Of a stretch of 38,359 nt of DNA, positions 8,464-24,174 are shown piece after piece. Every line of letters begins with the position of its first letter. Within the stretch, counting starts at the first letter, position 1. The position numbers were made by a program, and so were the translations under genes. Origin of the DNA: Patescibacteria group bacterium (GTDB taxonomy: Bacteria; Patescibacteriota; Minisyncoccia; Phycocordibacterales; JBBUBG01); contig JAZKIQ010000005.1 in assembly GCA_040384765.1 (NCBI GenBank), forward strand, positions 87,558 through 125,916, given 5' to 3'. Below the pieces are notes generated by a model. The model was not told the DNA's origin, ran no database searches, and saw only the letters and a list, made by a program, of their open reading frames with translations.

Positions 8464-8682
8464 TTACAGTCGCTTTATGATCCGCCCTCGCTCCCCATAC
8501 TGATCCATGGTGAGCTCAACCTTATCTCCAATAAGCACTTTAATCTTATGAATTCTCATCTTTCCCGAAAGATACGCGAGAACGATGTTCCCGGGCTCGA
8601 GCTCGACGCGAAACATTGCATTAGGCAACGCTTCAGAGACTACACCCATCCTGTTCGTCCCTTTATCATCAGATTGTGCCAT
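8464..8682 (-). CDS. infA: Translation initiation factor IF-1
   Basis: [34 protein letters not shown]; ATG 8682. Confidence 0.97.
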
Positions 8683-8700: not shown

Positions 8701-8730
8701 ATAGTAGCAAAAATAAGGCTTTCCTGTCAA
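8701..8730 (-). promoter_or_regulatory. Probable promoter of the infA-rpsI operon
   Basis: Minus strand TTGACA (8725-8730), 18 nt, TG-C-TACTAT (8701-8706). Confidence 0.65.
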
Positions 8731-8813: not shown

Positions 8814-10049
8814 CTATTTGCGGCGGATTGCGATCGCCTCTGGGTTGGAAGGGAAACGAATAATCCAAGGAGGGCTAAAGAGTGCCTCTGCTTTCTCGAT
8901 TGTTGGATATTTTTTAAGCACCTCTCCATAGTCGCTCTTTGAAACACCCACAAGATCCTGCCGAAGAGCAGCTTCGTCGAGCGTCCACCGGAGGTCTGCA
9001 CTGCCAGTAAAGGCCAAAGTGATGGCTGTTACCTTTTCGGGATCAATTGACTCTTTGTTTGCTATCGCAAAAGTGAGAGCTTCTGGGTTTGTAATATCGA
9101 TCGCCTCTCCCCCGTAGCCTTCTATCTTCTTGTGTGCAATCGCGCGAGCAAGGGAGGTGCGCTCGAGGATCACTCCGTAGAGTACCCCTTTCGCATGCAC
9201 CTCGAGCGAGTCGGGCGATGCGGAGCTATCGTCCGATCGAGCAAAGGCAATAGTCCCAAAATCGGCCCCCTCATAGAAAAGGTACCCTTCGGCCGTCTGC
9301 TTTTTTGCCTTCTCGAGCAGTGAAATGCGGAGCGACTCTTCGAGCCGATGTCGTGCGTCAAGAATATCTGTATCTTTGGCTATCTTCTGCTTACCTTGTG
9401 CTCCCCCCTTCATCTCTGTTTTTGAGCGAGCGTAGATCTTTTCGTATTTAGGAGTTCCCTTGAGGCCAGGTACCGTAAAGTCGACAAGGCCAATATTGTA
9501 CGCATCTCCTGCCTCCGCCGCAGTAACTGCAGCTGACACAGAGCCAGGCACCGTACCTTTCATACCCGGAATAACAATCGCCTTGTCGGCTTTGTAGATC
9601 TTGCCATCTGCTGTCTCGAAGCGGGTGTTTGCTACAAGGCGCTGCTCCGCCGCGCTAAATGCGTTGTATACCAAGATAGTGCCGGTCGCTTTTTTGGTGA
9701 CGTCGGAAAATCCGTTTGCAGGCACCTGGGCGGTAGCTTCATCTTCAATCTTCATCACCTCAAAGTGCACCGCCAGAGGATCCTCTTTGCGGAGTGCCGA
9801 ATAGGCATCGTCCACAACGACAGTAGCACTCCTCTGTACGATATCGAGTGTAGCGCTCCCAAAGACAGATGCAGAGAAGAAAAACCCAACAACTCCAAGG
9901 AGTACGAGGCCGATTACGACGCGTTTTTTTGAAAAAAGCGGCCCTCGAACGCGGGGTGACTGGAATGAGGGCTCTGCTTTTGACACCAGAGGCTCGCGCC
10001 GCACGGTCTCCTTTTTTACAAAAATATCTTGGATGAGCTTCTTTGCCAT
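8814..10049 (-). CDS. Single-pass membrane protein with baseplate J/gp47-like extracellular beta domain
   Basis: TM near residues 45-65, then KATGTILVYN..LVANTRF..G..YK...VTAAEAGDAYNIG pattern that I associate with baseplate-J-like domains; assigned from motif recall. Confidence 0.6.
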   Translation of the reverse strand: MAKKLIQDIFVKKETVRREPLVSKAEPSFQSPRVRGPLFSKKRVVIGLVLLGVVGFFFSASVFGSATLDIVQRSATVVVDDAYSALRKEDPLAVHFEVMKIEDEATAQVPANGFSDVTKKATGTILVYNAFSAAEQRLVANTRFETADGKIYKADKAIVIPGMKGTVPGSVSAAVTAAEAGDAYNIGLVDFTVPGLKGTPKYEKIYARSKTEMKGGAQGKQKIAKDTDILDARHRLEESLRISLLEKAKKQTAEGYLFYEGADFGTIAFARSDDSSASPDSLEVHAKGVLYGVILERTSLARAIAHKKIEGYGGEAIDITNPEALTFAIANKESIDPEKVTAITLAFTGSADLRWTLDEAALRQDLVGVSKSDYGEVLKKYPTIEKAEALFSPPWIIRFPSNPEAIAIRRK

Positions 10050-10070
10050 AAGGTAAGTCTATCACGACGA

Positions 10071-11249
10071 CTACCCAAAAAGTGAGTGCACAACTGCTCC
10101 GGCCTCCCAAGTGAGGAGGTCGTCTGGCTTTACCGAAGGCTCAACCCCGAAAAAGGGATGTGGGTAGATGGTGCTCGGGAGCACCGTTTCAAACGCCGTA
10201 TTCTCAATATTAAACTGTCGAAACGAAGGGTCCTGAAAGAAGCTCGTGTAGAAATCTCGAAGTTCTGGCGGAGCAAACAAGAGAAACTGCTTTGGCACAA
10301 GATACAGCTCGCTAATCTCTCCGAGTAGCTCGTGGAACTTTGCCACAAGCTCCTCTCGGGTTTTTCCCAGTGCAAGAGCGCAGCGCATACGCTCCTCGGT
10401 AGAGACAGCGCCAGCGTGCGTAGCAAGGAGCGTCGAAGAGACGACCTCTTTCTCGCACCCCAGCTCCTTCCCAAGAAGGCGCAGCACCACCTCTTTGCCA
10501 AACGGAAAGGTGCCTATTTCACTTATTCGTCCTTCCCTCACCACGACAAGCTCGACATCGTGCGCGGCCACGTCGACAATCACGAGATCACCAAGCGCTG
10601 TTGACGATGAGAGCGTCTGGAAGAGCGCAAAGGCGCGGGCCTTAGACGAGAGCACTGCCCGAGGAAACTCTGCTCGTACCGTCTCCTCAAGCATCGTATT
10701 GAAAGCGGCGGGAGTAACAGACAAAAGCAGATCGAGCGCAATCATCTGCGCCTTTTGTCCCACAAGCGTCTCTATGGAGTAGCCGTTTGCTCGATAGGCA
10801 AGATGCTCTTCGTCGAGAAGGGTAAACTTTGGCACCTCCTCATCCACATCAAACGACTCGGCAACCTCCTTCTTAAAGGAGAGCACTGCCCCTTCGATCA
10901 TATCTTTCTGTGTCTGCTCTGACACGAGTGCGCGGTCGCTGAAATGCGCTTCTGCACGGCGAACATGCGACACAGAAAGGGGTGAACCGAGAATACAGAG
11001 TACGGTGCTCGCATGCACAGCTCCATGCTTCTTTGCCTCAAGCAGTGCATGTACAAACACCTTCTTCACCTCAGCAAAAAAACGCGTCTTTGGGCGAAGA
11101 TAGCTATGCGGAAGCGGATAGCGAGCAGCAAATATCATCGAAAGAGCGTCTCCCTCTTTACGGAAGAGCCCTACACCGATCGAGCCTGAGTCAAAGTCAA
11201 AGAGGAGATGCAGCTCTGGCTCTTTTTTCTTGAACGAGAAAAAACTCAC
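10071..11249 (-). CDS. Degenerate actin-fold (FtsA/PilM-like) protein
   Basis: LLFDFDSGSIGVG (phosphate-1-like), VIVDVAAHDVELVVV (phosphate-2-like), FPFG helix; GTG 11249 lies 6 nt after a TATACT box. Confidence 0.6.
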   Translation of the reverse strand: MSFFSFKKKEPELHLLFDFDSGSIGVGLFRKEGDALSMIFAARYPLPHSYLRPKTRFFAEVKKVFVHALLEAKKHGAVHASTVLCILGSPLSVSHVRRAEAHFSDRALVSEQTQKDMIEGAVLSFKKEVAESFDVDEEVPKFTLLDEEHLAYRANGYSIETLVGQKAQMIALDLLLSVTPAAFNTMLEETVRAEFPRAVLSSKARAFALFQTLSSSTALGDLVIVDVAAHDVELVVVREGRISEIGTFPFGKEVVLRLLGKELGCEKEVVSSTLLATHAGAVSTEERMRCALALGKTREELVAKFHELLGEISELYLVPKQFLLFAPPELRDFYTSFFQDPSFRQFNIENTAFETVLPSTIYPHPFFGVEPSVKPDDLLTWEAGAVVHSLFG

Positions 11250-11285
11250 CTCTAGAGTATAGCGCACATCATGAATCGTGGGGCA

Positions 11286-11978
11286 CTACTCGGCACTCAA
11301 AAGACATTGATTGAGCGCCGCATCCGCACGCCATCCACATGAACCAACAGACGATCGCTCGCACACAGCTGATCGGTAGCATGCGTATGCTTCGCGATAT
11401 TCACACGTTGAGGCGACCTGCGTATCTCCACACACCTGAGCCGAGCAGCCGCTAATGACGCAGCCGTCGTACGCACCAGCCTTGCGATTGGCAAACTGCA
11501 CACCACCTACCACGGGAGTCTCTGCTTTTTTGGTCGCCTTGAGCTTCACGGGGACACGTACCTCGGCATCGTGCTCTGCCAGCCCAGAGGGATTATCTTT
11601 TTTAAATACAAGGACGCCGTCAGTGTCTGCCGACAGCTCATAAGAAATATCTGCCATAAAGGGCACAAATGCATCGGTCATCCACTCCCCCTGTGCTTGT
11701 GCAGGGACGATCGCAAGCTGCTTGCCCGTGCTATCGAGCAGCTCTACCGGAAATGAGGCTTCAAAATACCAATAGCCTCGAGCTTGACCCGAAAGATGAA
11801 TCGGCGAAGAGACCGTGTCCCCTGGCCTTGGCGCGGAGATGGTAATCAGCTCACCCACCTGCGGTGTCGTATCTACGGTAGCCGTGTCGTCAGGCGCCTT
11901 GTCGACGAGCACTGACACCCCTACCACAACAAGAACAAGGATAAAAAGACCAACAATACTTCGTGCTTGTGTATTCAT
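11286..11978 (-). CDS. Membrane-anchored Gmad2-type Ig-like protein with C-terminal eight-cysteine domain
   Basis: TM; ITISAPRPGDTVSSPI.LSGQARG.WYFEASFPVEL...KKDNPSGL; C-terminus has 8 Cys (CVISGCSAQVC..STCE..ACY..CE..CGW..C). Confidence 0.7.
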   Translation of the reverse strand: MNTQARSIVGLFILVLVVVGVSVLVDKAPDDTATVDTTPQVGELITISAPRPGDTVSSPIHLSGQARGYWYFEASFPVELLDSTGKQLAIVPAQAQGEWMTDAFVPFMADISYELSADTDGVLVFKKDNPSGLAEHDAEVRVPVKLKATKKAETPVVGGVQFANRKAGAYDGCVISGCSAQVCGDTQVASTCEYREAYACYRSAVCERSSVGSCGWRADAALNQCLLSAE

Positions 11979-12950: not shown

Positions 12951-13703
12951 TAAAAGCCATGGAATTTTGTCGCCAAACTCATGCGTGAGCGGGCATACGG
13001 CATGATCGTGCTTGGTTGCTTTGCAGTAGGTGCGGCCATAGTCGATGATGCGATACGTAAAGGTAAACCACTCTTCCTTTGGCAACAGCTCCATCAGGTC
13101 TCGCTCGATCTTTTCGGGAGTTTTCTCTTTTGTGAGACCGAGTACCTGCGCAAGACGTGTAACATGAGTGTCGACTGCAATCCCCTCTATCACACCGTAC
13201 GCATTTCCCAGCACCACATTCGCCGTTTTGCGCGCAACGCCGGGGATCTCGAGCATCTCCTCCATCGTCTTTGGAATAGCACCGCCATATTTTTTACTGA
13301 CGAGGTTTGCCGCTGCAAGAATATTTTTTGTCTTGTTTTTGTAGAAACCGCTCTGGAAAATATCTTTTTCAAACTCACGCGGATTTGCTCGTGCATAGTC
13401 GGCAAGCGTGCGGTATTTCGTGAATAGCTTTTCGGTGATCTCGTTAACCTTTTTGTCGGTACACTGAGCAGAAAGCTGCACAGCCACGAGGAGCTCCCAG
13501 TTGTTGTTGTAGCGGAGTATCGTTGCCGGCCTCCCGGGAAACAATCTGCCCAGAGCGGCGTGCACTGCCCTTGCACGATTCTTCTCTTTTTCGCTAAAGC
13601 GACTCTTCATCCCGTTAGAAATCAGATCCCCAACTCTTTCTCTGGCGATACGGGTTCTTTTCGGATATTTGGATGAGGACAAGCTATTTCTAACGGGATT
13701 CAT
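12915..13703 (-). CDS. nth: Endonuclease III
   Basis: WELLVAVQLSAQCTDKKVN, HhH IPGVARKTANVV, IAVDTHV; first 31 codons derive from an inserted element (original start ATG 13610). Confidence 0.95.
   Translation of the reverse strand: MNPVRNSLSSSKYPKRTRIARERVGDLISNGMKSRFSEKEKNRARAVHAALGRLFPGRPATILRYNNNWELLVAVQLSAQCTDKKVNEITEKLFTKYRTLADYARANPREFEKDIFQSGFYKNKTKNILAAANLVSKKYGGAIPKTMEEMLEIPGVARKTANVVLGNAYGVIEGIAVDTHVTRLAQVLGLTKEKTPEKIERDLMELLPKEEWFTFTYRIIDYGRTYCKATKHDHAVCPLTHEFGDKIPWLLKNSKHQIPNSR
13610..13698. mobile_element. MITE-like element, family B copy 1 (89 bp)
   Basis: TIR TCCCGTTAGAAAT/ATTTCTAACGGGA, flanked by TTCA direct repeats (13606-09, 13699-702). Confidence 0.8.
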
Positions 13704-13778: not shown

Positions 13779-13991
13779 TTAGAGATCCCCTGAAATATCC
13801 TTATCCTCTACCTGGTCGCGATCTGATTTGTCGCTATCTTCCTCAAACTTTTCTGTCTTATCCTGTTCCTTCTGCCATCCACCACCTCCACCTTCACGAT
13901 TCTCCTTCTCCTTGTCCCGATCCTCCTCGCGCTTTTTGTCCTTATCGTTGTTACCCTGGTTCATCGACTGATTCTTGTTCTTGTTTTCCAT
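13779..13991 (-). CDS. Small highly charged, probably disordered protein (70 aa)
   Basis: MENKNKNQSMNQGNNDKDKKREED...; followed by a strong hairpin. Confidence 0.55.
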   Translation of the reverse strand: MENKNKNQSMNQGNNDKDKKREEDRDKEKENREGGGGGWQKEQDKTEKFEEDSDKSDRDQVEDKDISGDL

Positions 13992-14102
13992 AGTTTTATC
14001 CTTAAAAATGCAGGGCATACTTCCTGCTCTCTCGTAGACGCTTCCCCAAGATAGCTATTACAAAGGACGAGTGGCGCGAAAACCGGCTTCTCGCGACCTC
14101 GT

Positions 14103-15417: not shown

Positions 15418-16128
15418 TTAGCTCTGAGGATACGAGGTAAATAAATAGGAAGCAAGTATCGCAGCTGTTTCCGCCCGGAGCGTGGTGGGCGCAAGCGAAA
15501 CAAAAGTAGCTCCTATTTCACGAGCCATTTCGCGCTCGGCGTCGGTCCACCCGCCCTCTGGGCCAACAAATACATATGAGGTGCCTTTCACTTTCACGCT
15601 ACTCGGAGATCCATATTCCGAGCCTCCATCACAAAAAATCACCGTGCCTTTTCGGTTGGCTCCAAAAAGCGCAGAGTCGAGAGAGATCGGCTCTTCGAGA
15701 GTTGGCACAAACGCGCGACCAGACTGCTCTGACGCTTCCTTCATAATTTTTTCAAGCCGGGGGCGCACAAAACCCTGCTTTACCGTACGCTCGGTTGAAA
15801 GCGGGATGACAGACTCCACGCCAACCTCGACAGCTTTCTGGACCGCGAGCTCAAAATTATCTTTTTTCAGAAGTGAAAGGCATAGCACCACAGGGGCAGT
15901 CGATTCGGTGGCCACCTTCTCCGCTTTACAATTTTCAAGGAAAACTTTTCCTTTTTCATGCCCCGAAATGGTGCAGCGCGAGAGGATACCGTTTCCATTT
16001 CCCACAATAATCTGTTCACCTTTCCCAAGCTTCAGTACATTTACGATCTGGTGGACAACCTCTTGGTCAGTAAGAACCTGGCTTTCACTCTTTGTATCAA
16101 ACGGGCCAATAAAGCGGTGAATCTTCAT
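15418..16128 (-). CDS. rsmE: 16S rRNA m3U1498 methyltransferase
   Basis: QKAVEVGV, EASEQSGR, VGPEGGW, LRAETAA. Confidence 0.95.
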   Translation of the reverse strand: MKIHRFIGPFDTKSESQVLTDQEVVHQIVNVLKLGKGEQIIVGNGNGILSRCTISGHEKGKVFLENCKAEKVATESTAPVVLCLSLLKKDNFELAVQKAVEVGVESVIPLSTERTVKQGFVRPRLEKIMKEASEQSGRAFVPTLEEPISLDSALFGANRKGTVIFCDGGSEYGSPSSVKVKGTSYVFVGPEGGWTDAEREMAREIGATFVSLAPTTLRAETAAILASYLFTSYPQS

Positions 16129-16186
16129 GGGGTAAAATTGAGTGATGCTCTAGTATACCCAAGCCTCGTTTTTTTCCAAAGAAAAA

Positions 16187-16311
16187 TAGGGCGCACGCAG
16201 TTGGATGCAGTTCGAGGCGCGAGCGAGGCTTATGACCAAGCTGTAGACCTACTACTGCGCGGGAGTAAACGAACGAAGCAACGAAGAAATGCGCCGACTG
16301 CGTGCGCCCTA
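16187..16311. mobile_element. Structured TAG...CTA element, family D copy 1
   Basis: TIR TAGGGCGCACGCAGTTGG/CCGACTGCGTGCGCCCTA; internal CGAGGCG..AGCTGTAG-N5-CTACTGCG..GCAACGAAG. Confidence 0.75.
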
Positions 16312-16368
16312 AAAGAAAGACCGCGCACCAGGAGACTGGTACGCGGGTATTTTGAAAATCGGGCTTTC

Positions 16369-17073
16369 CTACTCCCAATAAAACCGTATTGCCCGAGCCT
16401 TTGCAAGCTGATCAGGCCAGGGCATTGCGAGCTCGATCGCGCGCTGGCGAGCGATACCAGCAGCCGTCCGGTTATCACGGCAAGCGAGAAAATCGGCGTA
16501 GGAACGATGAAACCGAGACCGATTCTCTGGATCGAAGTCATCGAGCGCACGCTCGAGCTCCTCATACTCCGCATTGAGCTGCTCGGAGTTGGCACTGAAC
16601 TCCGAGGGCGTACTTCCCGCGATCAGCTTTGCTCTTCCTTCGAGCATTCGCAGCGAGAGGAGCGCGCGGCTGTTCGGCCTGCTCCCTTCCCGTTCGAGAC
16701 CCTCCTGCGCATACGCAATCGCATCCTCTGCGCGTCCAATACGCAGAAAGAATGCAGCGGCCACGTCGCACTGGTCGGCCGTGAGATCTCTCTTCGGGCA
16801 CAGGAGGCACTGGGCTCCGAGCGCGAGTGCACCGAGTCCGCCGAAGAGTACCCGAAGGGGGAGGAAGAGCACCTTGCCGACCCCCGTCGCGCGCGTCGCG
16901 GCTGTACTCGAAGCTGTACCAAACCCGCTCATCAAGATTGAAAAACAGCTTGCGACCTTACCAGAGCAAAAAGCTCCGAGGGCTCTTGCGAGCGCCACGA
17001 CGAGCGCCGTCACCAGCTTCCCCGAATAGGCGGGATCATCAGTCTTGGGCAACTTCTCACCGAGCGTATCCAT
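16369..17073 (-). CDS. Hypothetical helical protein with possible TPR-like C-terminal half
   Basis: AGGAGG SD, own extended -10 promoter; hydrophobic N-half, then A/L-rich helices (RIGRAEDAIAYAQEGL). Confidence 0.65.
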   Translation of the reverse strand: MDTLGEKLPKTDDPAYSGKLVTALVVALARALGAFCSGKVASCFSILMSGFGTASSTAATRATGVGKVLFLPLRVLFGGLGALALGAQCLLCPKRDLTADQCDVAAAFFLRIGRAEDAIAYAQEGLEREGSRPNSRALLSLRMLEGRAKLIAGSTPSEFSANSEQLNAEYEELERALDDFDPENRSRFHRSYADFLACRDNRTAAGIARQRAIELAMPWPDQLAKARAIRFYWE

Positions 17074-17193: not shown

Positions 17194-19056
17194 TTACGCC
17201 AACACCGCCTTGATTCTTCGTATCCCCTGCGCTACGGCTTCCTCTTTCTGTATTTTGAACTGATGTTTTGCTTCCCCGGTGGCATGGTCTTGGGCGAGCT
17301 CAAGCGTGTGTTCTACGTGTGGACCACCACAAATCTCAAGGCTATACGACTCACCCCCCGCCACTTTTGGGCCGACCTGGTACACCTTTACGATCGGCTC
17401 ATACTTATCTTCAAACACACCTAGTGCGCCCTGTGCTTTTGCATCCTCAAACGGAATCTCACTCCAAGTGACCGGCAGGTCTTCCCTAATCTTCTCATTA
17501 ATAATATCTTCTACTTTTTTGATCTCTTCGGGAGACATTTTTGCCGTGTGAGAAAAATCGAAGCGTAGTCGCTCAGGCGTAATATTGCTTCCTTTCTGAA
17601 GCACATGCTCACCGAGCACCATACGAAGCGCCTGGTGAAGCATATGCGTTGCCGTGTGGTACTTCACAGACATAGGCGAGTGATCTGCGAGCCCTCCCTT
17701 GAACCGCTCTCCTGCACCAGCACGAGATACCTCCTGGTGCTTTGCCAAAAGCACTGCATACTCAGCTTCGTTTTCTATGGCTACCTTAGATGTAGTGCCG
17801 TCTTCATTTTGAATTGAAAGCTCAGAGAGCACCTCTTTTGTTACCTCGGGAGGAAAGCCAAAGCTTTGGTAGAGGTCAAACAGATCCTTTCCGGTGACGC
17901 GTCCCTTCTTTTCAAGTCGATGCGATAGCTCAGCCATACCTTTGTCGAGCGTCTCACGAAAGCGCGACTCCTCTTTGTCGATCTCGCTTTTTATCAACTC
18001 CTCATTCACCAAAAGATTCGCATATACATGCTTGTACGTTTCGATAACGGCCCCTGCGAGCCAGTAGAGCGAGCCATGCTTCATCTCAAGCGAGTCGGCA
18101 AAGCGAACGGCGCGGCGAATAAGACGACGCAAAATATATCCCTGATCAGTGTTCGAGGGCACGACACCATCTCCGACCAAAAACACAGCCGTGCGAATAT
18201 GGTCTGCGATAATACGCTTTGCGCGTATATCGTTTAGTACGGTAAAGTCCTCGAGCTTGTGCATGATGAGCTCGAACAGGTCAGTTTCGTAAGCGGTCTT
18301 CTTGCCCTGAATAAGGGCAACTACGCGCTCGAGACCAGCACCCGTATCAACATTCTTATTCGCGAGCTTACCGATCACCTTTCCATCCTTCTTTTCATAC
18401 TCCATAAACACATCGTTCCAAAACTCAACAACCTGCTGCTTGTCGTCAGCTTTCTTAAACTGCGCGAGTGTCATATCGCCGAGCCCCTCGGGCGTAACAT
18501 CGTAATACATCTCCGTATCCGGGCCACATGGACCGTTGTCACCAGGGCTCCACCAATTTTTGTCGGCAGGCAAGAAGTAGATGCGATGATCCGACACGCC
18601 AAGCGATTTCCAGATTTCTGCTGACTCGGTATCTCGCGGAGCAGTTTCATCTCCTTCGAATACGGTTACGTAGAGGCGTTTTGGATCAAGCCCAAACCCT
18701 TCTTCTCGAGAGGTGATCAGCTCGTAGCTCCAAGCGATAGCATCTTTTTTGAAATAGTCACCCAAAGACCAATTGCCAAGCATCTCGAAAAAGGTGTGAT
18801 GAGTATTATCGCCAACCTCTTCGATGTCGTTTGTGCGTACGCATTTTTGCGCATCGGCAATGCGTTTTCCTGCAGGGTGTTTTTGCCCCAAAAGATACGG
18901 CACGAGCGGCTGCATGCCAGCAGTATTAAAAAGGACCGACGGGTCATTCTCGGGAACAAGCGAGGCGGAAGGGATGATAGCGTGGCCGCGCTTTGCAAAA
19001 AAATCTAAAAATCGCTTACGAATTTCGGCTGAAGTAAGTGTTGGCATATATGACAT
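17194..19056 (-). CDS. alaS: Alanine--tRNA ligase, short form
   Basis: FNTAGMQP, HHTFFEMLGNWS, VDTGAGLER, GYILRRLIRR, editing motifs HTATH and CGGPH; ends GIRRIKA. Start 19056 or 19047. Confidence 0.97.
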   Translation of the reverse strand: MSYMPTLTSAEIRKRFLDFFAKRGHAIIPSASLVPENDPSVLFNTAGMQPLVPYLLGQKHPAGKRIADAQKCVRTNDIEEVGDNTHHTFFEMLGNWSLGDYFKKDAIAWSYELITSREEGFGLDPKRLYVTVFEGDETAPRDTESAEIWKSLGVSDHRIYFLPADKNWWSPGDNGPCGPDTEMYYDVTPEGLGDMTLAQFKKADDKQQVVEFWNDVFMEYEKKDGKVIGKLANKNVDTGAGLERVVALIQGKKTAYETDLFELIMHKLEDFTVLNDIRAKRIIADHIRTAVFLVGDGVVPSNTDQGYILRRLIRRAVRFADSLEMKHGSLYWLAGAVIETYKHVYANLLVNEELIKSEIDKEESRFRETLDKGMAELSHRLEKKGRVTGKDLFDLYQSFGFPPEVTKEVLSELSIQNEDGTTSKVAIENEAEYAVLLAKHQEVSRAGAGERFKGGLADHSPMSVKYHTATHMLHQALRMVLGEHVLQKGSNITPERLRFDFSHTAKMSPEEIKKVEDIINEKIREDLPVTWSEIPFEDAKAQGALGVFEDKYEPIVKVYQVGPKVAGGESYSLEICGGPHVEHTLELAQDHATGEAKHQFKIQKEEAVAQGIRRIKAVLA

Positions 19057-19091
19057 AAGGTATCGTATATCCTACCGTAAACACCATAAAA

Positions 19092-19212
19092 AAAGAATGG
19101 CCACAACTCGTTTTCTGCTAAAAACGGTCGCAGCCCCCGCCTCAGTCGCCTTCGCTCCTTCCGGCCCCATTCTTGTTTTAATGAAGGGTTGCCTTCATTA
19201 AAACAAGAATGG
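19092..19212. repeat. Structured intergenic repeat, family A copy 2
   Basis: Core 19129-19166 matches 1378-1415; followed by a perfect 21-bp stem 19167-19212. Confidence 0.8.
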
Positions 19213-19244
19213 CCAGGTACTGAACTTTCGTTCTGTACCTGGCC
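19211..19244. terminator. Hairpin downstream of the GC-rich cassette
   Basis: GGCCAGGTAC-T-GAAC-TTTC-GTTC-T-GTACCTGGCC (GAAA loop on the minus strand). Confidence 0.55.
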
Positions 19245-19260
19245 GAGAACCGGACGAGGG

Positions 19261-19422
19261 CTATCCCCCCTTGAGGCGGCGCGCATGATTCGGAGCTCTG
19301 GGCTCCCTCCTCTGCGGCTTCTTCACCTCGTCCTTGAGAGACCGCTTCGCCGCCGTGACTTCGAGTGCGATTCCCCGAAGGGCATCGCGCGTCGGCTGCC
19401 AGGCCGGCTGCATGTTGAACAT
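19261..19422 (-). CDS. Small basic protein (53 aa; below the ORF-track cutoff)
   Basis: AAGGAGGTGA SD before ATG; MFNMQPAWQPTRDALRGIALEVTAAKRSLKDEVKKPQRREPRAPNHARRLKGG. Confidence 0.6.
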   Translation of the reverse strand: MFNMQPAWQPTRDALRGIALEVTAAKRSLKDEVKKPQRREPRAPNHARRLKGG

Positions 19423-19455
19423 AAGATCACCTCCTTCCCTTTGTCTGTTCGCAGA

Positions 19456-20667
19456 CTAGCCGAGGAGCGAGATCGCGGCATTGGCCATCCGATCCGCCGA
19501 CTCGCCCAGCCGCTTGGGCATGATGTACACCTCGCCCTGCGTCTTCGCCATCGCCTTCGCCTTGCGGTTGTTCGCTTCGAGCAGCGCGCCGAGCCCCGAG
19601 CGGAGCTTCGTCATACTGCCGTCCGTGGCATCGAAGTACGTGCCCTGCTCCCACGAGGAGTAGCCGACCATGCCGAAGTTCTTCATCGACACGCGCCGTG
19701 CATATTCGCCCGCGCAGTACGAGACGACGGGCACCTTGCGGAACCCGGCGCACACCCGCACCGTGGAGCGATACTCGATGAGCGCATCTGCGGCAACGAC
19801 GAGCTTCTCGGTCGGCATCATCTTCTTCGTGAACACCCGCACCGCCACCGCACCCGAGGAGAAGAGCCCCTCGAAGCCGCGCGCCGCCTTCTCGATCTCG
19901 TCCGTGCTGCCACGGTACTGGTCGAGGAGCAGATCGGCGTAAAACGACTGCTCGTCCTTGCCCGCTGCCTCCATAACCGGGTTAGGAACGAAGGCATGCT
20001 GCCTGAGGATGTTGTCGAGGTTCGACTTGCGCGTCAGCACCTCGCCGGGGTGGAGCGCGAGCGCCACCATGAACTGCATCGTGGAGTCGCACTCGGCCAT
20101 CTCGGCCACCGTGGTGATCGCCGCCTGGAAGAGCGGGATGTTGACCAGGATGTCCTTGGTGCCCGGTACGACGACGAGCTTCTTCTGTTCATCGATGCCG
20201 ATCGACTCACGGACACTCGATCGCGTCGTCTGGTCGAGGGCGAGCCGCTCCCATTCAGGAGAGCCCACGACGACCACCTGCGCGTTCGGGAAGTTCTTGC
20301 GAGCCATCGGGACATCTTCCTTCACGATGACCATGATCATCGTGAACATGTGTGCCACAGAGCTGAAGATCGTAGCGCCACGCCCTGCCGAATCCGGCAC
20401 GTCGAGCACACCAACCACCTTCTCACCTTGCGCCCACGCAGCCGTGATCGCCGGGATCTCGAGGGACTGAGCCCTCGACTCGTCGGAGGTGAGGCCCGTC
20501 ACGAGCATGTCCGCACTCTCTACTTCGAGCCGATTGAGCTTCGCCGGCTTTCCGAGCGCGAACTGCCGGAGCACCTTATGCCCCTGTCGTTCGATCAGAT
20601 CCGCCATCGGCCGCATCACCGTTTCACTGCCAACCATGTCGGCAACGAATGCACACGTGATCTCCAT
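19456..20667 (-). CDS. Divergent GT-B-fold protein (glycosyltransferase / CDP-glycerol transferase / epimerase-like)
   Basis: VVVVGSP linker, ALHPGE, LVVAADALI..STV...AG..KVPVV nucleotide-binding helix pattern; AGGAGG SD; GC-rich codons. Confidence 0.6.
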   Translation of the reverse strand: MEITCAFVADMVGSETVMRPMADLIERQGHKVLRQFALGKPAKLNRLEVESADMLVTGLTSDESRAQSLEIPAITAAWAQGEKVVGVLDVPDSAGRGATIFSSVAHMFTMIMVIVKEDVPMARKNFPNAQVVVVGSPEWERLALDQTTRSSVRESIGIDEQKKLVVVPGTKDILVNIPLFQAAITTVAEMAECDSTMQFMVALALHPGEVLTRKSNLDNILRQHAFVPNPVMEAAGKDEQSFYADLLLDQYRGSTDEIEKAARGFEGLFSSGAVAVRVFTKKMMPTEKLVVAADALIEYRSTVRVCAGFRKVPVVSYCAGEYARRVSMKNFGMVGYSSWEQGTYFDATDGSMTKLRSGLGALLEANNRKAKAMAKTQGEVYIMPKRLGESADRMANAAISLLG

Positions 20668-20752
20668 CTATCTCCTCCTGGGTTTTCCGCACTCTTTGCG
20701 TCACAGACAAAATATACGCTACAACAAAATTACAGATATAGCAATACCTTCG

Positions 20753-21808
20753 CTAAGCGATAATCCCACCGCCTACGCACACATCCCCCTCATAGAGCAC
20801 GAGCGACTGCCCTGGGGTAATCGCTTTTTGTGGACGATCAAAACAGACCTCTGTTTCTGAAAGAAGCGTGCACGCTTCGAGCGGCTGGCGATAGCGAAGG
20901 CGAGCTTGGTATTTTTTATCCAATGCTGGCGCTCGGCCAGAAATGGTGTGAAATTTCTCAACCGTCACCATATCTTTTGCAGCTTCTCCAAGCGGATCGT
21001 GCGATACGGTGATCTCATTTTTCTCGTGATCTTTGGCAACAACATAGTAGGGCAGCTCGCTCGGACTCTTCTTGGTGATAGTAAACCCATGCCGCTCACC
21101 AATGGTGTAGAGAGCCGCCCCATCGTGCCCCCCTATCACCTTCCCCTCTAGGTCAACGACAGCACCAGGGGCTACATCGATATATCGCGCGAGAAAATCT
21201 TTCATATCAACATGTCCCACAAAACAAAGGCCCTGGCTGTCTTTTTTCTCCGCCACCGGAAGACCGTATTTCGAGGCAAGGGCACGCACCTCGGATTTTT
21301 GGAGATGGCCTATGGGAAAAAGCGTATGCGAAAGCTCCTCTTGGCCAACTGTCCAGAGGAAGTAGGTTTGGTCTTTGTTGCGATCTAAAGAAGTTTGTAG
21401 TTGATAGTTTGTAGTTGATAGTTGAACTCGGGCATAGTGGCCAGTCGCAACATAATCCGCTCCCATTGAAAGCGCTTTTTTCAAGAACGCGCCAAATTTT
21501 ATCTCCCGATTGCACATCACATCTGGGTTTGGCGTACGCCCCGCTTTGTACTCTGTGATCATATAGTCGATCACGCCCTCCTTGTACTCTTTTTCAAAAT
21601 CGAATGTCAGAAGTGGGATATCAAGCACGGCTGCCACCCGCATCGCATCACGCCGCTCCTCGGGCCATGTGCACGGCAGCCACTCGGGACTCCAGGTTTT
21701 CATAAACACACCCACGACGTCATAGCCCTGCTCTTTGAGCAAGGCTGCTGAGACCGACGAGTCTACCCCGCCAGACATTCCTACAAATACAACTTTTTTG
21801 CGATCCAT
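20753..21808 (-). CDS. mnmA: tRNA-specific 2-thiouridylase
   Basis: MSGGVDSSV, TPNPDVMCN, ATGHYA, KDQTYFL, DSQGLCFVG, TPGQ; ATG 21808. Confidence 0.97.
   Translation of the reverse strand: MDRKKVVFVGMSGGVDSSVSAALLKEQGYDVVGVFMKTWSPEWLPCTWPEERRDAMRVAAVLDIPLLTFDFEKEYKEGVIDYMITEYKAGRTPNPDVMCNREIKFGAFLKKALSMGADYVATGHYARVQLSTTNYQLQTSLDRNKDQTYFLWTVGQEELSHTLFPIGHLQKSEVRALASKYGLPVAEKKDSQGLCFVGHVDMKDFLARYIDVAPGAVVDLEGKVIGGHDGAALYTIGERHGFTITKKSPSELPYYVVAKDHEKNEITVSHDPLGEAAKDMVTVEKFHTISGRAPALDKKYQARLRYRQPLEACTLLSETEVCFDRPQKAITPGQSLVLYEGDVCVGGGIIA
21391..21425. repeat. In-frame TAGTTGA heptamer tract inside mnmA
   Basis: AAGTTTG TAGTTGA TAGTTTG TAGTTGA TAGTTGA, encoding QLSTTNYQLQT. Confidence 0.8.
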
Positions 21809-22932: not shown

Positions 22933-24174
22933 TTATATCGGAAGATTTACCGGCGCCTCTGATTTCTTTGATTCAATGCGAGAAAGAGTAGGTGTTTCGG
23001 TTGATGCACCCGGAATATGCCACAGCGTAGCAAGCTCCTCGTTTGAAAGCACAAATGAAGGGCGAATGTACGGCTCGAAGAAAAAGCCGCGCTTTGAATA
23101 CTCTTCATAAAACTGCTGCTTGCGCTTCTTGCGACGAATGCCAAACGGATCTTCGATCGCTTCGATATCAAAACCCGTATAGTTCGTAATCGAAAAGTCG
23201 TTGAAGGCATTCGAGCCAAACACGCGCAAAAGCCCGATCTGAGACGCAATATGCGGAACGGTAAATTTTCCTTTGCGAGCAAGATAGACCGAGCGAATCC
23301 CTACATCAAAAAGACGCTTACTCGCCTTTCTTTCGGTCGCCTCTACAATCTCCTTCTCTTGAGTAGAGAGCGTTGACTCAAGAAAGCCGAGCGTCTTTCC
23401 CTCCTTTTCTTTTTTCTCAAGGAGATTGATCTTCCGAATCTCTCTTAGAAACTCCTCGACGCGCTTAGAAAAAGGCGCCGGCCAGTCTCCAGGCTTTGGC
23501 GGCTTCGGGTCGTGCGCCTGAAGCAATATCTGAAACCAGAAGTTTTCTCCCGGGCCCATCGTGCCCATAAACTCAACGATCTGGGAAAGCGGGTCGATCT
23601 TGAACTCCTCCTTTGGGTCTTTGTCGAGGCCCCATTCGATATACGTTTTTATAGGCAACACGTCGCCCGCCTTTGCCTTTGTTTTGTAGTGGGTTGCCCA
23701 CATCTCCCAGTTTTTCTCATCGGGAGTATATGGGCAAAGCGGCGTATAATCCTCGGCCTCGTGAATCTCGATTGCTGGATACTGAGCGTACAGCTGTGAC
23801 TCGATCAGGTTGCGAAACCCGATCGGCGTATAGACATAGAAATGAAGCTCGCCTTCAATAGAAGCGATCTCGAGCGTCCACCAGGGGCGGATCTTGCCAA
23901 GGTAGTACCAGTCCCACCAGTTTGATGGTGAGGTCTGGAACATGGCGTTGCCGATCACCACCTCGATTCCCTTCGGATTTTTCGGAGACTCTTTTGGGAT
24001 CTTTATCTCAAGAAGAACAAACTTTGTTTTAGAAATCGTGAGTTGCTGCACATAGCGCACCCAAAGCTCCCAGAATAAAAATCCCGAGATGAACACAAAT
24101 GCGAATGGAAGATACACAGCAGACGCGGCAAAAGCATCCTGAACTGCTCCCAAAAGTAGTGTTGTCAAACTCAT
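22933..24174 (-). CDS. Conserved CPR membrane protein resembling the N-terminal module of TrwB/VirD4-like ATPases, with no ATPase domain
   Basis: TM; LLEIKIPK, TLEIAS..LHFYV, ESQLYAQYP.IEI.E.EDY, FVLSNEELATLWHIP; no Walker A. Confidence 0.6.
   Translation of the reverse strand: MSLTTLLLGAVQDAFAASAVYLPFAFVFISGFLFWELWVRYVQQLTISKTKFVLLEIKIPKESPKNPKGIEVVIGNAMFQTSPSNWWDWYYLGKIRPWWTLEIASIEGELHFYVYTPIGFRNLIESQLYAQYPAIEIHEAEDYTPLCPYTPDEKNWEMWATHYKTKAKAGDVLPIKTYIEWGLDKDPKEEFKIDPLSQIVEFMGTMGPGENFWFQILLQAHDPKPPKPGDWPAPFSKRVEEFLREIRKINLLEKKEKEGKTLGFLESTLSTQEKEIVEATERKASKRLFDVGIRSVYLARKGKFTVPHIASQIGLLRVFGSNAFNDFSITNYTGFDIEAIEDPFGIRRKKRKQQFYEEYSKRGFFFEPYIRPSFVLSNEELATLWHIPGASTETPTLSRIESKKSEAPVNLPI

Follow-up and report, generated by a model that had tools for sequence, protein, structure and literature searches.

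Layout of the A-B locus

The window analysed here, a stretch of 38,359 nucleotides (nt) from the genome of a Patescibacteria group bacterium (assembly GCA_040384765.1, contig JAZKIQ010000005.1, positions 87,558 to 125,916), contains on its minus strand two adjacent genes, termed A and B, which encode a cytoplasmic actin-fold protein of the FtsA/PilM type and a bitopic membrane protein with an external region of the baseplate-J fold. Gene A (10071..11249, minus strand) is an open reading frame (ORF) of 392 residues, and gene B (8814..10049, minus strand) is one of 411 residues with an ATG start, whose product is oriented with its N-terminus inside the cell. The stop codon of A and the ATG of B are separated by 21 nt, and B is followed on the same strand by infA, rpsM, rpsK, rpsD, rpoA, rplQ, rplM and rpsI. 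An earlier note on this DNA had described two co-oriented genes 21 bp apart, directly upstream of the infA operon, which is the arrangement found, and the short strings that it quoted are all present: DFDSGS at residues 24–29 and DVAAHDV at residues 232–238 of A, and MAKKLIQDIF at the start of B.

Two start codons were considered for gene A. A GTG at 11267 would give a protein of 398 residues (10071..11267), and a second GTG at 11249, which is the in-frame residue 7 of that longer form, gives the 392-residue form of the public gene call. The start at 11249 is the likelier one, the family alignments beginning at residues 8–10; residue numbers of A are nevertheless those of the 398-residue form throughout. 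Neither protein reaches any cut-off in Pfam or NCBIfam. Both are regarded as real genes and not chance frames because each has hundreds of homologues and each gave an AlphaFold2 model with a high mean predicted local distance difference test score (pLDDT), namely 93.2 for A (alignment of 100 relatives; predicted template modelling score 0.90) and 90.8 for B (alignment of 89 relatives).

Modelled structure of protein B

Protein B can be divided into five regions, all given below on the minus strand. The N-terminal cytoplasmic peptide (residues 1–20; 9990..10049) is conserved, with D8 found in 82 of the 89 aligned rows and R17 in 70, and is disordered in the model (pLDDT below 50). It is followed by a single transmembrane (TM) helix (residues 44–62; 9864..9920), which has a Kyte-Doolittle mean of 2.55 and is modelled as a helix from residue 41 to 62. 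The N-terminus is placed inside because 12 lysine or arginine residues, against 4 aspartate or glutamate residues, precede this helix. A membrane-proximal β-region (residues 63–117; 9699..9863), with modelled strands at 65–72, 74–86, 94–110 and 113–129, leads to a β-barrel of the baseplate-J/GlxA type (residues 118–222; 9384..9698), which is better conserved than the rest of the protein and holds 16 of its 20 invariant columns. Finally, a helix and the C-terminal domains (residues 223–411; 8817..9383) align with the C-terminal part of phage wedge proteins.

The barrel finds its closest single-domain counterpart in GlxA, both by VIA (5lqi_A, Z 15.5, root mean squared deviation (rmsd) 1.6 Å over 96 aligned residues with 24% identity, residues 118–215 of B) and in a profile search against the Protein Data Bank (E 0.002), and it also matches the Mu baseplate (9ki1_H, Z 11.9). 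When the whole of residues 115–411 was compared by VIA, the matches were baseplate wedge proteins and their counterparts: cyanophage A-1(L) (8kea_d, Z 13.4), P1 (9vzk_Y, 12.8), phiCD508 (9gb2_G, 12.4) and diffocin (8v3w_0, 12.0), followed by Mu, phi812, Pa193, T4 gp6 and AFP, with Z of 8–13 across the set. Over this range the rmsd is 13–17 Å, which indicates that the single domains match and that their arrangement differs. The Foldseek match to 8kea_d is likewise clear (E 8.7e-8, probability 1.00), and predicted viral structures named ‘Baseplate J-like’ in BFVD also match B.

At the level of sequence, PF21110 is matched by 81 of the 89 family members and PF04865 by 7 of the 89 at E≤0.01 (best 0.0025), the protein of the window itself having no PF04865 match over the cut-off. 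The PHROG 6 profile, ‘baseplate wedge subunit’, falls on the barrel; the window protein scores E 0.0016, and two relatives score 5e-8 and 3.7e-9. Most of the fold matches begin at residue 115 of the model, leaving region 63–117 outside them, and at about residues 71–90 of the phage chains; in B, the TM helix and the β-strands come before that point. Hydropathy, the AlphaFold2 model, Foldseek, VIA and PHROG 6 thus agree with the bitopic protein and external baseplate-J-like region proposed in the earlier note. As modelled, B is an orphan wedge-fold protein, in which the phage-type N-terminal part appears to be replaced by a membrane anchor.

Protein A belongs to a separate FtsA/PilM-type lineage

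The best structural counterparts of A are FtsA and PilM. Foldseek retrieved FtsA (4a2a_B, E 6e-19) and the PilM:PilN complex (5eou_B, E 3e-18), and VIA gave Thermotoga maritima FtsA (1e4g, Z 26.1, 349 aligned residues) and PilM (2ych_A, Z 24.3, 323 aligned residues). The scores against MreB, actin and Hsp70 are only 15–16, with about 256 aligned residues (MreB Z 16.1), and the architecture is therefore specific to the FtsA/PilM group. No TM segment was found in A by hydropathy, and the model terminates in a helix (residues 383–397).

Both phosphate loops are altered, as the earlier note had recognised when it described an actin/FtsA/PilM-type protein with lost loop residues. The phosphate-1 loop (DFDSGS, residues 24–29; 11181..11198, minus strand) departs from the family consensus D-I-G-S-G/A-S at position 26, where a glycine is found in 76 of the 100 family rows and an aspartate in the window; the two closest relatives have the same change. 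In the phosphate-2 loop (DVAAHDV, residues 232–238; 10554..10574, minus strand), position 235 is glycine in 70 of the 100 rows and alanine in the window, position 236 is glutamate in 92 and histidine in the window, and position 238 is threonine in 88 and valine in the window. The window protein and its two closest relatives thus combine G26D, G235A, E236H and T238V with W97L, P168L and W307L. The glycine-rich adenosine motif is absent from the window protein and from the short-form A proteins described below.

No match to PF14450, PF02491, SHS2_FTSA or PF11104 (PilM_2) over the cut-off was found for the window protein, and among its 100 aligned relatives there were 47 weak matches to the FtsA family PF14450 and 17 Ppx-GppA matches. 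In a tree rooted on MreB, the short-form A proteins, the long-form A proteins, FtsA and PilM form four separate clades with support of 99–100. A is a third FtsA/PilM-type lineage, nested neither in the canonical FtsA clade nor in that of PilM. The long and short forms of A join in the best tree with a support of 18; profile matches of about 1e-30 and an identical synteny are instead the grounds for regarding them as kin.

Conservation and gene order across Patescibacteria

The distribution of the two families was determined across 401 Patescibacteria genomes sampled evenly, with thresholds of E≤1e-5 for B and E≤1e-12 for A; the counts for both include one unpublished genome, which matches both and on which nothing else depends. 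B is found in 345 of the 401 genomes (86%) and A in 241 (60%). A hand tally gives 220 genomes with both, 21 with A and without B, 125 with B and without A, and 35 with neither. Thirteen of the 21 genomes that have A alone belong to one family with otherwise weak B hits, and another family lacks both A and B in all of its 23 sampled genomes.

A word-indexed search returned 318 homologues of B at E≤1e-3, and every hit with a name beyond ‘bacterium’ is from Patescibacteria (Kaiser-, Zambryski-, Lloyd-, Taylor- and Vogelbacteria, Paceibacterota or Minisyncoccota). The Saccharibacteria setting evoked in the earlier note is not established for the window, since the closest named relatives of B are from Paceibacteria-type groups. 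For A the same kind of search returned A alone, because the protein evolves so fast, and an exhaustive profile-free search was required to reach 997 relatives at E≤1e-3. Compared with relatives of the same order, A is about 20% identical and B 30–34%. The ESM Atlas neighbours of both proteins, which are taken as leads only, are all from candidate-phyla-radiation groups.

The pair is conserved together, a point that the earlier note had wished to see checked. In 61 of the 80 loci fetched around B relatives, the gene immediately upstream of B, in the same orientation, is an A-family ORF, and so it is in all 20 loci fetched from distant classes, which were chosen because their hits were already seen to lie side by side. 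Among 75 genomes in which both positions were listed, A adjoins B in at least 72, as read by eye; of the three non-adjacent cases, two are in fragmented assemblies and one has both hits at contig ends. In the 19 loci that lack A, the gene directly upstream of B is alaS in 18 and encodes a periplasmic binding protein in one. Five A-lacking genomes yielded only weak cross-matches to the A profile, the best being FtsA beside FtsZ in four and a lone PilM in the fifth.

Because alaS directly adjoins A in 38 of the 61 loci with the pair and B in 18 of the 19 without A, the ancestral order is taken to be alaS-A-B. On the other side, of the 76 loci whose sequence extends 400 nt or more beyond B, 67 have infA downstream in the same orientation, and in 64 it starts within 300 nt. 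A locus from candidate division Kazan reads alaS-A-B-ruvX. The presence of A changes at least three times on the tree of B, and at least three losses of A left B in place. An apparent fusion of A, a frame of 1013 residues at one locus (L135 of genome G194), was rejected: the frame arises where a scaffold gap filled with N joins alaS to A, and it is not an A-B fusion.

Long and short forms of the pair

Two forms of the pair can be distinguished. In the distant classes, the long form of A has about 420 residues, carries the canonical motifs DIGT, DIGGGTTD and CGGGS, and passes the PF14450 cut-off with 50–66 bits. The corresponding B proteins, of 519–657 residues, contain an N-terminal domain of about 80 residues, a low-complexity linker, a TM helix and the same ectodomain. 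This N-terminal domain has a mean column identity of 42% (loci L115–L135, first ~85 codons), matches no Pfam family, and has its best sequence match to a solved structure at E 0.71. In the clade of the window, by comparison, short-form B has 410–450 residues and retains only the conserved N-terminal peptide of about 20 residues, and short-form A has about 390–400 residues, with a glutamate in the phosphate-2 loop at the place of the canonical third glycine. The motif DxGGG is found in none of the 100 alignment rows of short-form A, whose end branches are about five times longer than those of the long form. By these comparisons, the window carries a reduced form of the two-gene module, and the nucleotide site of A has decayed most strongly in the window lineage. 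The short-form peptide may be a collapsed remnant of the long-form N-terminal domain, an impression gained from two consensus lines.

The peptide is kept best where A is absent. Its second half is found in all 19 loci without A, against 19 of the 61 with A, and its first half in 18 of the 19, against 44 of the 61; the counts are confounded by relatedness and correspond to three independent pairs on the tree. This distribution suggests that the peptide serves something other than A, or something more than A. Complex prediction of A with residues 1–40 of B gave a score of 0.00 in both runs, with the fold of the partner uncertain, and speaks neither for nor against binding.

Transposon insertion data for a cultured relative

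A related locus is tabulated in a transposon insertion sequencing (Tn-seq) study of the cultured saccharibacterium Southlakia epibionticum (Wang et al. 2023, Cell, PMC10633639). Tables S1 and S2 of that study give the order mnmA, alaS (SEML1_0657), ‘PilM’ (SEML1_0656), ‘baseplate J/gp47’ (SEML1_0655), ruvX (SEML1_0654) and mltG. SEML1_0656 (1284 nt) is annotated as ‘pilus assembly protein PilM’, with K03590 and PF14450 as its only domain, and SEML1_0655 (1671 nt) as ‘baseplate J/gp47 family protein’, with a SpoIIAA-like domain at 6–105, a β-barrel at 256–365 and a gp6 C-terminal domain III. The locus has in common with the pair described here the order of alaS, an FtsA/PilM-like gene and a baseplate-J-like gene, and the domain layout of SEML1_0655 is that of long-form B; it differs in being of the long form and in being followed by ruvX and mltG rather than infA. 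We take the two genes as members of the A and B families by annotation, domain layout and gene order.

Both genes are flagged in these tables as core and as Patescibacteria-enriched families. SEML1_0655 is scored NE/ES/ES and class II essential, its insertions decreasing from 48 in the input to 25, 7 and 2 at T0, T1 and T2. SEML1_0656 is scored NE/NE/GD, with 39 insertions in the input and 47, 65 and 49 thereafter, and with reads going from 2427 to 660 and 221. The canonical FtsA of S. epibionticum (SEML1_0174) adjoins FtsZ elsewhere in the genome (PMC10633639). The words ‘baseplate’, ‘FtsA’ and ‘PilM’ are absent from the main text of that article, in which the pair is thus tabulated and not described, and no paper discussing the A-B pair in Patescibacteria or Saccharibacteria was found in the literature; one of the papers that were met deals with an injection system of Haliangiales.

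Canonical division, pilus and phage genes in the genome

The genome of the window, assembled into 12 contigs that total 822,710 bp, has a marker-gene completeness of 99.83%. The earlier note had suggested checking that canonical ftsA and pilM exist elsewhere in the genome. Two PilM genes (PF11104) are located outside the locus, one of them followed by a pilN gene on contig C10, and no SHS2_FTSA match was found across the genome. The ftsZ gene stands alone on a 1,968-bp contig (C8), its adjoining genes being unassembled, and a canonical SHS2_FTSA gene is present in all 25 relatives searched; because of these two observations the missing ftsA is most likely an assembly gap. In the 680 nt upstream of ftsZ on that contig there is a frame of 138 residues, open at its 5' end and unlike FtsA. 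Canonical FtsA coexists with the A-B pair in all five other genomes tested, and the A-B locus is not the ftsA or the pilM locus of this genome.

Two MreB genes (PF06723, E 1e-131 to 1e-133) are found on contig C5, at 13198–13671 and 18983–19459, one of them followed by mreC. A genome of 0.82 Mb thus holds two full MreB paralogues together with two PilM genes.

As the earlier note had stated, there are no phage genes around the pair: none is found among the genes of the window (tube or gp7/TssG-type partners were not searched for). In the whole genome, the contractile sheath family PF04984 has no match, and the best match to gp25 (PF04965) reaches 12.2 bits, which is under the cut-off.

A proposed envelope module and its alternatives

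The reading that we prefer, and hold tentatively as quite possible though somewhat short of probable, is that the window contains a reduced form of a two-gene envelope module found across Patescibacteria, with B as its core and A as an accessory organiser. B would be the core component on three grounds: it occurs in more genomes, it persists where A has been lost, and it is scored as essential in the cultured relative. Its ectodomain would self-associate at the outer surface of the membrane, in the manner of wedge proteins, forming a scaffold that would be needed for envelope growth or division and not for pilus assembly or injection, and its cytoplasmic end would recruit partners. A would act as a cytoplasmic organiser of B, ATP-driven in the long form and, in the window, as a nucleotide-free scaffold.

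Several points weigh against this proposal. The adjacency of the genes is by itself weak evidence that A binds B, and A was undetected, at the thresholds used, in 125 of the 345 genomes that bear B. The peptide of B is retained in loci without A, its second half in all of them, so that its binding target cannot be A only. The window protein has lost the near-invariant E236, T238, W97, P168 and W307, and A may be heading for loss here. The fold of B, together with neighbours such as mltG, murD and ruvX, is what suggests self-association of the ectodomain and an envelope role, yet these genes are common housekeeping neighbours as well. As for the cultured relative, the S. epibionticum proteins are assigned to the two families by annotation, domain layout and synteny, and the depletion of SEML1_0655 could be due in part to a polar effect on the essential ruvX, although the insertions tolerated in the upstream SEML1_0656 argue against strong polarity.

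A first alternative, which we regard as unlikely, is the one put forward in the earlier note: a PilM/PilN-like module in which A grips the N-terminal peptide of B and couples the cytoplasm to an external ring of the baseplate fold. It agrees with the structural matches of A, which include PilM bound to PilN residues 1–12 (5eou_B), PilM-PilN (2ych_A) and FtsA with FtsN residues 1–29 (7q6i_B), with the layout of B, in which a conserved peptide, a variable linker and one TM helix succeed each other as in PilN, and with the adjacent, co-oriented genes in 61 of the 80 loci. The proposed grip nevertheless finds no support in the distribution of the peptide, which is independent of A (second half in 19/19 loci without A against 19/61 with it). 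Most classes, moreover, have a folded B domain of about 80 residues in place of the peptide, no PilM_2 or PilN Pfam match was obtained for the window proteins, and the genome has its own pilM-pilN pair.

It is also rather improbable that B works alone or with other partners, A being a decaying relic of a former ATPase partner and the adjacency historical. The departure of the window protein from its own family at near-invariant positions points that way, as do the lower identity of A than of B among relatives of the same order, the repeated loss of A with retention of B, at least three times, and the tables for S. epibionticum, in which the A-like gene tolerates insertions and the B-like gene does not. 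Set against this are the full-length open frame of A and its confident model (pLDDT 93.2), the 21-nt spacing to B, which has been kept, and the two closest relatives, which are intact and have the same decayed motifs; this last point suggests a stable nucleotide-free form and not a pseudogene.

A third explanation, that A is the divergent cell-division FtsA of this genome and B an FtsN- or FtsQ-like partner in the divisome, is largely refuted and is very unlikely. The lack of an SHS2_FTSA match in a genome 99.83% complete and the position of FtsA as the top structural match (Z 26.1) would fit it, but the neighbours of ftsZ are unassembled on their 1,968-bp contig, FtsA is found in 25/25 relatives and in 5/5 of the A-B genomes tested, and A lies in a clade separate from FtsA and is not next to ftsZ. 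Last, the idea that B is a prophage or contractile-injection remnant standing beside A by chance, suggested by its fold and by its weak sequence matches to phage baseplate wedge proteins, is refuted for the present gene by its occurrence in 345 of the 401 genomes, its fixed housekeeping position between alaS and infA or ruvX, the lack of a sheath or an over-cut-off gp25 in the genome and of phage genes in the window, and the apparent replacement of the phage N-terminal segment by a TM anchor. An ancient phage origin of the fold of B is possible.

The preferred envelope module can be extended to a bolder proposal, which we consider doubtful though worth stating: that the envelope of Patescibacteria holds an essential machine, not yet described and present in nearly all of them, in which a domesticated, membrane-anchored wedge protein would form an extracellular ring or lattice and a third FtsA/PilM-like actin ATPase would organise it from the cytoplasm, for division, envelope growth or host contact in these ultrasmall bacteria, which have a wall. 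The window would then hold a stripped-down version, whose ATPase is now a nucleotide-free scaffold.

Relation to known systems

PilM-PilN of the type IV pilus resembles the A-B pair in combining a cytoplasmic protein of the FtsA/PilM fold with a bitopic protein encoded just downstream, which has a conserved N-terminal peptide. It differs in that A and B have no PF11104 or PF05137 match and the ectodomain of B is of the baseplate-J fold and not of the PilN fold; in addition, there is no pilO, pilB or pilC near A-B, the genome has separate pilM genes, and the nucleotide site of A is decayed. FtsA, with its partner FtsN, shares with the pair the fold of A, being its best structural match. In contrast to FtsA, A stands in its own clade (support 100), has no FtsA Pfam match, is not beside ftsZ and does not have intact phosphate and adenosine motifs, and canonical FtsA coexists with it in other genomes. 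In the MreB-RodZ couple, an actin-like protein binds a small folded domain that a bitopic envelope protein has in the cytoplasm, a layout that is also suggested by long-form A-B. Unlike MreB, A has the FtsA/PilM architecture (Z 26 against 16), and the cytoplasmic domain of long-form B has no sequence match to solved structures.

With the baseplate J-type wedge proteins (P2 gpJ, Mu gp47, T4 gp6 and their injection-system counterparts), B has in common the barrel and the C-terminal domains. It differs from them in being anchored in the membrane, in apparently lacking the phage N-terminal part, and in being chromosomal, in a housekeeping position and phylum-wide, with no sheath or over-cut-off gp25 in the genome and no other tail genes in the window. 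The GlxA barrel domain (PF21110), known from the radical copper oxidase of Streptomyces lividans, is the closest single-domain match to residues 118–215 of B; one domain only is common to the two proteins, and B is without the copper-oxidase propeller.

What was already known of the pair consists of gene names from automatic annotation and its tabulation in one Tn-seq study; no description of it as a system was found. What is new is an unprecedented ectodomain coupled with a separate actin lineage, in a pair that in kind resembles the PilM-PilN, FtsA-FtsN and MreB-RodZ couples. Two well-understood folds are met in a new setting, the wedge fold as a membrane-anchored cell protein without an injection system, and the actin fold as a third branch of the FtsA/PilM type. 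A large part of bacterial diversity falls within Patescibacteria, and most of the core genes specific to the phylum, a set to which A-B belongs, are without a known role. According to the published Tn-seq tables, the one relative open to genetic work requires B to grow, and the genetics of S. epibionticum make the function directly testable. The natural series formed by A with ATP motifs, A with decayed motifs and the loss of A can show what the actin partner contributes.

Neighbouring features of the window

Downstream of B, infA (8464..8682, minus strand) is the conserved neighbour in the short-form clade. Between the two genes there is a promoter-like site (8701..8730, minus strand), composed of TTGACA, a spacer of 18 nt and TACTAT, with TG, which agrees with the consensus at 10 of 12 positions. 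By way of this putative promoter, found in a consensus scan, transcription of infA and the ribosomal genes may be independent of that of A-B. No Rfam family reaches its gathering score in the window.

Upstream of A, the ancestral neighbour alaS (17194..19056, minus strand; PF01411 at E 1.7e-130) is separated from it in the window by about 6 kb, which contains rsmE, murD, two HhH glycosylase genes and the gene of a secreted Gmad2/eight-cysteine protein; mnmA and mltG are located just past alaS. The last of the intervening genes (11286–11978, minus strand), part of the ~6 kb inserted between alaS and A in the window lineage, encodes a secreted or membrane-anchored protein of 230 residues and ends 18 nt upstream of the alternative A start at 11267. 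Its product contains a Gmad2 immunoglobulin-like domain (E 4.9e-14) and a C-terminal domain with a cluster of eight cysteines (TIGR04289, E 3e-6). Between nth and murD there is an ORF of 79 residues (13779–14018, minus strand) in which nearly every residue is K, D, E, N or G.

Pfam gave no match at E≤1e-5 for several long ORFs near mltG, mnmA and alaS: 22933–24174 (minus strand), 19189–20763 (plus strand) with 19456–20667 (minus strand), and 15958–16941 (plus strand) with 16369–17073 (minus strand). In two of these regions the long frames overlap on both strands, and one region lies within a stretch of raised G+C content (0.58–0.59 at 19–21 kb).

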